DNA from: Staphylococcus phage S6
Sequence record: LC680885.1
DNA: 64,000 nt
Reading direction: 5' to 3' (one strand)
The first letter of the stretch is position 1. The number at the start of each line of letters is the position of its first letter. A model generated the notes under the pieces. That model was not told the DNA's origin. It ran no database searches and saw only the letters and a list, made by a program, of their open reading frames with translations. Positions 38,440 through 39,532 of this stretch are shown piece by piece. Made by a program: the position numbers and the translations under genes.

Positions 38440-39420
38440 GTACTACAACTATATAAAATAGATCATATGAATACGTATGATCTTAATTAAAATATTACGG
38501 TCATTACCATATAATTGCGGATCCATTGAGCCTAGGCTTTGACGAAGCATAGAGCTCATTGGATCCTATCATTATATTGTCGGTTTAATATTATATTTAT
38601 CTATCTTCTTAAATTTTGATTATTATATGAATTATATTTTATTATAAAGCTATATCTTATTAAATTAAGATAATCATATGAATACGTATGATTTAAATTT
38701 ATGTATTAGCAAAATAATTTTTCCAAAATTATTTTCTTATTTGATAGTATCTCCTTCTGCAGGGAATCTTTTCATAAAGTTTCCCGCAGATGGAATCTAA
38801 TCAAACATGTTTGTTTATAATAAAATAAGATTTTTAACTTAAAGTTTTTCTATAATTAATTTATAGGCATTATATGAATACGTATAATGATTATTTATTT
38901 ATGTGTAGAAATATGTCCTGATGCTTGTCAGCATCTGGGCTTATTTCTCGATTATATACTGCAGCTCGTGCCGCTTCCTTATTACTTAGGAAGCCGCCAA
39001 GCTGCATTGTATATATTTGTTGGTTTAAGTTAAAAGTTTTAATTCGATTTAAAGTTATTCTATAATTAATTTATAGACATTATATGAATACGTATAATGA
39101 AATAATTATTTATAATCATTGCCATAAATAAATCTCCACGTTCCAACTCCTTCTTTAATATTAAAGAAGGAGGAACACAGGATATCTATTTATCTTTGTT
39201 TAAATCGAAGTTATTCTCTCTATTAGTTATTCTATAATTAGCTTTATAGACATTATATGAATACGTATAATGATTTTAGAATCATAACCTATTCATTATA
39301 TTTACTCTGCTTTATTTTCGGTGTAATGATTCCTTCATTACACTCCCAGCTGGGACCATTCTTCTCTCGTTCGAAGACCACTTACTCTTTCATCAGGTCC
39401 CAGCTAAAATAAAGCTTTAA
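38440..39420 (+). repeat. tandem array of five ~200-bp units: a conserved AT-rich module (TTCTATAATTAATTTATAGACATTATATGAATACGTATAATGA and shorter variants) followed by a unit-specific GC-rich hairpin core
   Basis: Conserved modules at 38464-38480, 38675-38691, 38848-38890, 39058-39100 and 39230-39273. Cores at 38519-38566, ~38750-38800, 38917-39006 (nested stems), 39140-39176 (perfect palindrome CTCCTTCTTTAAT/ATTAAAGAAGGAG) and 39309-39415. No ORF longer than 60 codons on either strand. Confidence 0.7.
39309..39415 (+). ncRNA. candidate structured ncRNA closed by 10-nt terminal inverted repeats (retron msr/msd-like architecture)
   Basis: a1 GCTTTATTTT (39309-18) is the reverse complement of a2 AAAATAAAGC (39406-15). 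Inside lie a 9-bp hairpin GTGTAATGA/TCATTACAC (39321-43) and a 10-bp stem AGCTGGGACC/GGTCCCAGCT (39348-57 / 39396-405) around a 38-nt loop. All helices nest. GC content is far above background. Confidence 0.4.
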
Positions 39421-39482
39421 ATATAATTTTAGTATTAGAGAAGAATATAGAATGAATTAAATTCATTATAATAATCAACTTT

Positions 39483-39532
39483 GCCGTTACCTATATGATT
39501 ATAGGTAACGGTATTTATTTTTTTAATTTTTT
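39483..39532 (+). terminator. strong Rho-independent terminator immediately upstream of the RT gene
   Basis: 12-bp stem CCGTTACCTATA / TATAGGTAACGG with a 4-nt loop, then TATTTATTTTTTTAATTTTTT. Confidence 0.75.

Follow-up and report, generated by a model that had tools for sequence, protein, structure and literature searches.

In a 64,000-nucleotide (nt) stretch of DNA from Staphylococcus phage S6 (LC680885.1; called here the window, with position 1 as its first letter), a 1.2-kb gap separates the lysis genes from a gene for a retron-type reverse transcriptase (RT), and this gap appears to hold five tandem retron-like RNAs placed before that single RT. We regard the five units as a natural array of tandem msr-msd non-coding RNAs (ncRNAs) that is served by one RT and reverse-transcribed in the manner of retrons, and put the probability of this reading at about 0.6. 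The canonical retron signature is an a1/a2 stem ending in a branching G that faces an opposing G (PMC12673091), and in the array a G directly 3' of a1 and a G directly 5' of a2 are invariant in 21 of the 21 distinct units compared.

Tandem units in the gap upstream of the reverse transcriptase

Homologous regions were taken from nine GenBank phages and from metagenomic contigs encoding RT homologues. Over positions 38300-41100, the window is 97.6% identical to Staphylococcus phage PALS_2 and 88-96% identical to DC4, Madawaska, MarsHill, and LY01, with Machias, AH12, PB50, and SA1 as more distant relatives; all of these named relatives are jumbo phages of about 260-275 kb. Once the gaps were aligned, a common order of elements emerged for the units, namely a1, a G, hairpins P1 and P2, a long hairpin, an opposing G, and an a2 that is complementary to a1. 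Hairpins P1 and P2 follow the first G, from which the P2 loop is 28-35 nt away in most units, and the stretch before a2 is taken up by a long hairpin or a junction measuring 96-171 nt.

All five units lie on the + strand. Unit 1 (38381-38593) consists of a1 at 38381-90, G38391, P2 at 38460-83, a long hairpin at about 38509-78, G38583, and a2 at 38584-93, with an a1/a2 stem that covaries with those of Machias and of two further loci (L010 and L011). Unit 2 (38629-38833) has a1 at 38629-48, G38649, P1 at 38654-71, P2 at 38672-93, hairpins at about 38711-38806, G38813, and a2 at 38814-33; its stem (score 16.5, p = 0.007) shows compensatory changes relative to Machias (AACTATTATAAA/TTTATAATAGTT) and SA1. 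In unit 3 (38823-39044), where a1 is at 38823-43, followed by G38844, P1 (38849-67), P2 (38868-89), two hairpins (about 38907-39018), G39023, and a2 (39024-44), the stem scores 17.5 (p = 0.003) and pairs AACTTAAA/TTTAAGTT in the window as against ATCTTAAA/TTTAAGAT in SA1. Unit 4 (39043-39209) has a perfect 11-base-pair (bp) stem (p = 0.02; SA1 counterpart ATGAATTAAA/TTTAATTCAT) formed by a1 at 39043-53 and a2 at 39199-209, with G39054, P1 (39059-77), P2 (39078-99), a long hairpin (about 39123-93), and G39198 in between. Unit 5 (39217-39441) runs from a1 at 39217-25 (TCTCTATTA) through G39226, P1 (39231-50), P2 (39251-72), a junction (39295-39427), and G39432 to a2 at 39433-41 (TATTAGAGA).

The most recognizable part of each unit is P2, the top of which corresponds to a 14-mer, ATATGAATACGTAT, that has five copies in the 64-kb window, all of them in the gap (38465-39268). 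Its lower stem varies by unit and clade with pairing kept, and the apical A-U, U.G, and G-C pairs are invariant, as is the position of the tetraloop. Among 22 distinct P2 sequences, 99% of alignment cells are paired and six of the nine pairs have changed on both sides, with none of 500 shuffles reaching as high. Related phages carry five, four, or three P2 hairpins. When IMG/VR was scanned for the 14-mer, there were single chance matches and no arrays.

For the outer stem, we made an unbiased search in which every G up to 100 nt upstream of P2 was combined with every downstream position, and the a1/a2 pairs given above ranked top for units 2-4 and second for unit 1. Moreover, with the G set by sequence motif alone, the best a1 complement comes right after TT(T/G)G in almost every unit of every clade; the pairs anchored in this way have p = 0.003-0.04 for most units, those of units 1 and 5 in the window being weaker. 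In an alignment of the 21 distinct units that was anchored on the two Gs only, 97.1% of cells are paired, a percentage that is partly built in, as a2 was first located by complementarity, whereas the covariation and the flanking Gs are not. Here, nine of the ten pairs have changed on both sides and the covariation is 0.665 against 0.139 in shuffles (0/500 as high), with slid controls pairing in 37-50% of cells.

These patterns also bear on what kind of element the units are. Tandem units of 170-210 bp with flanking inverted repeats in an AT-rich intergenic region could be DNA-level repeats, such as miniature mobile elements bounded by terminal inverted repeats, sites of recombination, or an origin, rather than RNA genes. 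We find this scarcely credible, however, as the arms differ between units and are compensatory between orthologues, which is characteristic of base pairing rather than of terminal repeats to which a protein binds. In addition, the interiors of different units show no relatedness, and the 14-mer has no copy in the remaining 62 kb of the window. Furthermore, the structures are strand-specific, since the U.G pair, and the G.U pairs to which A>G changes have twice independently given rise, are possible on the + strand only. Terminal inverted repeats of the miniature-transposon kind were accordingly rejected, and integron attC-like sites were likewise considered for the units and rejected. As + RNA, the msr part has the greater stability (-316 versus -213 kcal/mol, summed).

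Regarding the msd parts, the array segments have only AT-rich chance matches of up to 16 nt elsewhere in the window, where possible antisense targets were looked for. Separately, we noticed that the apex of the unit 4 hairpin (39147-39172), AACTCCTTCTTT(T)AAT, is also found in SA1 (L007, about 3095-3125), so that it is kept between clades as the lower stem changes. This apex pairs with AAAGAAGGAG, a Shine-Dalgarno-like purine run, and could conceivably be an anti-Shine-Dalgarno/Shine-Dalgarno mimic.

A conserved three-way junction within unit 5

A preliminary description of this stretch had likened the repeats at 39309-18 and 39406-15, upstream of the RT, to retron a1 and a2, with G39320 where a branching G would be placed. 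Both arms are present exactly as given there, as are the short hairpin and the long hairpin (10-bp stem, 38-nt loop) that lie between them, and G39320 is indeed found two bases past the 5' arm, with a C at 39319. By folding, shuffling, and covariance-model alignment, we identified these elements as a three-way junction (39309-39415, + strand) that sits inside unit 5. Its closing stem joins GCTTTATTTT (39309-39318) to AAAATAAAGC (39406-39415) and is followed on the outside by an extension stem (39295-304 with 39418-27). Hairpin 1 (39320-44; 10 bp with a 5-nt loop) consists of GGTGTAATGA (39320-29), the loop (39330-34), and TCATTACACT (39335-44), and hairpin 2 (39348-405) of AGCTGGGACC (39348-57), the 38-nt loop (39358-95), and GGTCCCAGCT (39396-405).

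This fold is confirmed as real, far beyond chance, and conserved. The minimum free energy of the junction is -40.2 kcal/mol as opposed to -15.7 +/- 2.5 kcal/mol for 200 dinucleotide shuffles (z = -9.7), and the closing stem and two hairpins were recovered by independent folding in 13 homologues from five clades, in which the closing-stem sequences all differ (GCTTTATTTT, CCTCTTTT, GGAGAAT, GGGAATCT, GATTCTC, and GGAaTCTCT). A MAFFT alignment of the divergent junctions proved structurally useless and was set aside in favour of the independent folds and of a covariance model built on the six closest sequences. In the clades of the window, Machias, and SA1/L014, the model matches each locus exactly once, and it has no second match in the 64-kb window. 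In the resulting alignment of 11 sequences, 96% of cells are paired, though the fitting of the alignment to its own model biases this in favour of the structure; both sides have changed in 25 of the 30 pairs, none of 500 shuffles is as high, and slid controls pair in 34-50% of cells. The sequence of the 38-nt loop of hairpin 2 is better conserved than the stems, and hairpin 1 is without a counterpart in the other four units.

The conserved layout of repeat, short hairpin, long hairpin, and repeat covaries and adjoins a retron-type RT, and could thus be read as a single, discrete terminated ncRNA, with the inner repeat as a1/a2, G39320 as the branching G, hairpin 1 as msr, and hairpin 2 as msd. 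To us this is very improbable, for several reasons. G39320 is not conserved (G in eight, A in two, and U in one of the aligned homologues) and is paired as an ordinary stem base, the spacing from stem to next G varies by clade (cGG, caaGG, ctaaG, cAG, aGG), and there is no opposing G, as it is T39405 that precedes the 3' arm. Moreover, hairpin 1 is peculiar to unit 5, whereas P1/P2 and the outer G pair are common to the units, and the invariant P2 and four further units would be left unexplained. As the inner repeat sits between P2 (39251-72) and G39432, we therefore take it for a unit-specific closing stem. In unit 5, the junction appears to be the core of the msd-like part and to correspond to the long hairpins found in units 1-4. 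Hence, the preliminary description holds as to a retron-like locus, a retron-type RT being located downstream, and fails as to where a1/a2 and the branching G are placed: the signature is found further out, as a1 39217-25/G39226 and G39432/a2 39433-41, and is repeated in all five units.

The reverse transcriptase and its partner

The RT (504 amino acids (aa), 39544-41058, + strand) contains an RVT_1 domain at residues 213-425 and, on sequence and model comparison, is a member of the retron clade. In PADLOC, the 25 best matches listed are all retron RT models, the best being RT_II-A (2.7e-39). When the AlphaFold2 (AF2) model (predicted local distance difference test (pLDDT) 78) was compared with the PDB by Foldseek, the best 14 hits were solved retron RTs, among them structures of retron I-A, Eco7/Ec78, Eco2, Ec83, Ec86, and Eco8, with group II intron RTs, DRT2, Abi-P2, and DRT9 ranked below. 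Three motifs, NADYH (270-274), the catalytic YADD (369-372), and ITG (421-423), are invariant or nearly so in 13 homologues; NAXXH and VTG are reportedly signatures of retron RTs. The retron RT fold matches are about as long as the RT domain, and residues 1-200 (39544-40140) make up an extra N-terminal domain, which in the AF2 model has beta-rich and helical parts with pLDDT values mostly of 70-90 past residue 33. The extension could be what reads the P2 hairpin, or else could act as an effector domain.

One base past the RT stop begins a partner open reading frame (ORF) of 274 aa (41060-41884, + strand) that is conserved along with the RT. Among 1.84 billion proteins, it matched four representative clusters, and its homologues are restricted to this phage group. 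Its AF2 model is all-helical and has no fold match in the PDB. For retrons in general, 13 types with associated effectors are recognized. The RT-partner pair ends at a terminator-like hairpin (41902-41923, + strand), at the equivalent place of which a terminator is annotated in Madawaska and Machias.

Linkage of the array to the reverse transcriptase

The preliminary description had looked to RT homologues devoid of the element as evidence against a retron, and had left room for a coincidental resemblance in an independent small RNA (sRNA). Yet an array is present beside every full-length RT homologue of at least 37% identity whose contig includes the upstream region, with no homologue of this kind lacking one, and such lasting linkage, seen at each homologous locus for which the upstream sequence examined is long enough, disfavours a coincidental sRNA. 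The linkage extends to locus L012, in which the RT is 38% identical, the other neighbouring genes are different, and a 587-aa partner (6526-8289; no PADLOC match) replaces the 274-aa ORF. Here, the 1.6-kb gap (3377-5000) contains seven small hairpins of the form AAG-WTT-CTT with a variable stem of 5-7 bp, together with GC-rich long hairpins, and three hairpins of the AAG-WTT-CTT type are found at another locus, L017. Thus, the hairpin handle changes together with the RT clade, as would be expected of an RT recognition element. The next-nearest RT homologues are ordinary short retron RTs with at most 34% identity over about half of the query, and an IMG/VR scan with RT peptides gave no relatives.

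Covariation is evidence of RNA pairing and not of reverse transcription, and the units might instead act as RNAs (decoys, regulators, or protein scaffolds) that are cut from a precursor at a1/a2 processing stalks as in rRNA operons, with the RT not copying them or using them as a scaffold only. A G.U pair at the base of hairpin 1, the relative + strand stability of unit 5, and the conserved loop sequence of hairpin 2 would all fit, and some retron types are described in one preprint (bioRxiv 10.1101/2025.10.22.683967) as making little multicopy single-stranded DNA (msDNA) constitutively. Even so, we consider this possibility unlikely, albeit worth serious attention, because it leaves unexplained why the stems always end with G facing G as in retrons, why, from clade to clade and even where the neighbourhood has changed, the units stay adjacent to an RT of the retron clade whose YADD is intact, and why the type of small hairpin changes with the RT clade.

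Transcription signals

At the head of the array is a 27-nt motif, TTTAAATATATATAATATTAATGAAGA (38343-38369, + strand), which is separated by about 12 nt from a1 of unit 1. Every clade has conserved it in this place, the head of the gap. It contains a sequence like TATATTAT, the AR9/MarsHill-type AT-rich early promoter consensus (Korn et al., bioRxiv 10.1101/2020.12.14.422802), and is the probable start of one transcript over all five units. Similar copies lie at 43912-43938 and 54247-54273 (+ strand), where none would be expected by chance, and shorter matches to TTTAAATATATATTATAA.AATG lie at 2556, 11949 (- strand), and 22671 (- strand); such further copies are likely to serve the virion RNA polymerase as phage early promoters. 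The late promoter of AR9, AACA(N6)TW, was also considered and is not present.

At its other end, the array is followed by an intrinsic-terminator-like element (39482-39525, + strand), comprising a hairpin of 14 bp with a 4-nt loop (39482-39513) and a T-run. That a terminator stands between RNA and RT, as the preliminary description had it, is borne out, and the element is conserved: it is present in all clades with differing stem sequences (GCCGTTACCTATA, TCCGTTATCTATA, CCATTACCTG, CCGCTATCTATA, and ACCGTTACATAT) and is the only strong one in the gap. It closes the array and probably attenuates RT expression. A spacing of about 140 nt had been given from the 3' arm of the inner repeat to the RT start (ATG at 39544); such a separation exists, and measures 128 nt. 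An AT-rich palindrome, AATGAATTAAATTCATT (39450-39467, + strand), is located between a2 of unit 5 and the terminator in the window group, and is missing in SA1 and Machias.

Promoter-like hexamers with a 17-nt spacing (TTTATA and TATAAT) overlap P2 in units 3-5, and T/G-rich tracts follow the long hairpins. On this basis, the gap could hold five separate sRNA genes, each with a host sigma-A promoter in the P2 region and a long hairpin plus TTTGTTT as terminator, the RNAs starting past P2. This is quite doubtful, however, as sigma-70-like promoter sites number 49 versus 40.9 +/- 5.7 in shuffles and are thus no commoner than expected. Moreover, the 3' arm of P2 reads TGAAAT, TGCAAT, TGTAAT, or TAAGAC in several units, breaking the near-invariant A2 and T6 of a -10 box as the hairpin is kept by compensation, and RNAs begun past P2 would be without a1, leaving the strong a1/a2 covariation unexplained. 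For the same reasons, namely the lack of excess over shuffles and the arms that break the -10 rules with the hairpin kept, P2 was rejected as a sigma-70 -10 box.

Comparison with known systems

Retron-Eco1 (Ec86) and Retron-Eco7 (Ec78) are canonical retrons, with which the phage locus shares a retron-clade RT, ncRNA immediately upstream on the same strand, an a1/a2 stem with G facing G, msr hairpins after the G, an msd hairpin before a2, and a co-operonic accessory gene. In contrast to these, which are found on the bacterial chromosome or in a prophage and make msDNA, the locus belongs to a lytic jumbo phage and its msDNAs are predicted. A parallel for the array itself is provided by engineered tandem msr-msd "multitrons", in which one retron RT uses several units in one transcript (PMC10370050). 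In multitrons, as is proposed for the phage array, a single retron RT makes several different complementary DNAs (cDNAs) from tandem msr-msd units, all on one transcript and each primed at a site of its own. Multitrons, however, are synthetic constructs in which the msr copies are identical and the donors designed, whereas in the phage units compensatory changes have made the msr stems diverge, and the msd parts are structured elements that are natural and conserved. As for the DRT2 and DRT9 defence RTs, these share a single RT with a structured ncRNA just upstream, but score under every solved retron RT in the fold search of the phage RT. We know of no a1/a2 stem with a G pair, and of no arrays, in the DRT2 and DRT9 ncRNAs.

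Korn et al. (bioRxiv 10.1101/2020.12.14.422802) described MarsHill gp206 as a retron-like RT with a 200-residue N-terminal domain and hypothesized a retroelement ncRNA in the 1,200-bp upstream region, with no effector associated. They proposed no structure, units, a1/a2, or G, whereas the gap is resolved here into five units and a conserved partner ORF is added. The paper on DC4 notes the RT only. For a diversity-generating retroelement, to which no dedicated test was devoted, array segments of at least 17 nt do not recur in the window and the RT best matches retron models; nor did Korn et al. (bioRxiv 10.1101/2020.12.14.422802) report an Avd, template repeat (TR), variable repeat (VR), or initiation of mutagenic homing (IMH) sequence. 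We found no natural multi-ncRNA or phage-encoded retron in the literature, with an uncertain overlap with a preprint on an "ncRNA array", reverse transcriptase, and cDNA (10.64898/2026.09.22.753630), the word counts of which contain no "jumbo", "Staphylococcus", or "msDNA".

A number of points weigh against a reverse-transcribed array. Canonical retrons have one ncRNA per RT, where the phage locus has five (3-5 in related phages and seven in the distant clade), and their ncRNA is directly upstream of and co-transcribed with the RT, where the phage locus has a strong conserved terminator in between. The N-terminal extension of about 200 aa is also a departure from them, and the partner ORF matches no known retron effector, having no Pfam, PADLOC, or PHROG match and no recognizable effector domain. 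In the gap, Rfam gave no match at gathering score, and at E <= 10 only weak chance matches to unrelated families, so that the comparison with retron covariance models that had been suggested for this locus yielded no Rfam retron family even at that threshold. Two of the outer stems are weak in the window alone, these being unit 1 (p of about 0.16) and unit 5, whose stem of 9 bp is interrupted by one T.T mismatch and is weaker than the other four (p = 0.23), though the latter is backed by GTCTTTtATTA/TAAtTAAAGAC in Machias (p = 0.04) and TTTCTCTATTA/TATTAGAGAAA in SA1 (p = 0.06). While the msd parts are more stable in the cDNA sense (-947 versus -862 kcal/mol, summed), this is mostly C>G composition, and after shuffle and composition control the excess is -1.6 kcal/mol (p = 0.11), with unit 5 relatively favouring + RNA. 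Finally, what the analysis shows directly are the structures and their covariation, the invariant G pair, the class of the RT, and its linkage to the array, whereas the transcription start, G-primed reverse transcription, and the biological role are inferred.

Genomic neighbourhood

On the 5' side of the array lie an endolysin gene (36445-37770) and small ORFs, and upstream of the lysis genes is an ORF of 1747 aa (28883-34126, + strand). Directly 3' of a 110-aa ORF, at 38285-38315 (+ strand), a hairpin (AGGTAATGGCA...GTCATTACCT) followed by Ts is kept in relatives. It is probably the terminator of the lysis-gene operon, in which case the array would be a separate transcription unit. Further away, at 63679-63821 (+ strand), Rfam matched a group II catalytic intron D1-D4-5 (44.5 bits versus a gathering score of 34.5), which agrees with the intron-disrupted genes reported in these jumbo phages. 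ARAGORN found no tRNA or tmRNA.

Proposed mechanism and implications

In our model, the array would be transcribed early, probably as one RNA from the motif at 38343-69, and each unit would fold locally. The RT would bind P1/P2, with the invariant top of P2 as its likely recognition handle, and prime on the 2'-OH of the invariant G as candidate branching G. It would then copy the msd leftwards from the opposing G, giving five different msDNAs with maximum lengths of about 100, 119, 133, 98, and 159 nt for units 1-5, respectively. Most transcripts would stop at 39525, making the ncRNA abundant, and only read-through would express the RT and its 274-aa partner. The most plausible role would be in early-infection conflict with host defences or competing phages. 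Going further, we suggest, with confidence that falls somewhat short of even, that the locus is a natural "multitron" of a lytic jumbo phage, in which one extended RT produces a fixed panel of structured msDNAs with conserved apical sequences as a multi-target tool for early infection, these serving, for example, as decoys or sensors against host defences or rival phages.

The current understanding of a retron is that of a bacterial defence system combining a single RNA, a single RT, and a single effector. If the natural "multitron" is true, no natural retron in which one RT has several templates would have been known before it, nor any retron shown to work for a virulent phage and not against one. 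What their RT does has been a question since these phages were described, and it can now be tested at concrete sites, namely the candidate branching G and the opposing G of each of the five units, plus one recognition hairpin. The array would also offer a compact, ready-made scaffold for multiplexed single-stranded DNA production in cells, in which the msr handles are short, at about 45 nt, and the divergence of the stems keeps out long direct repeats. Moreover, a conserved natural array would show that retron RTs serve multiple templates in nature, and its presence in a virulent uracil-DNA jumbo phage would show that phages use retron chemistry for their own ends.

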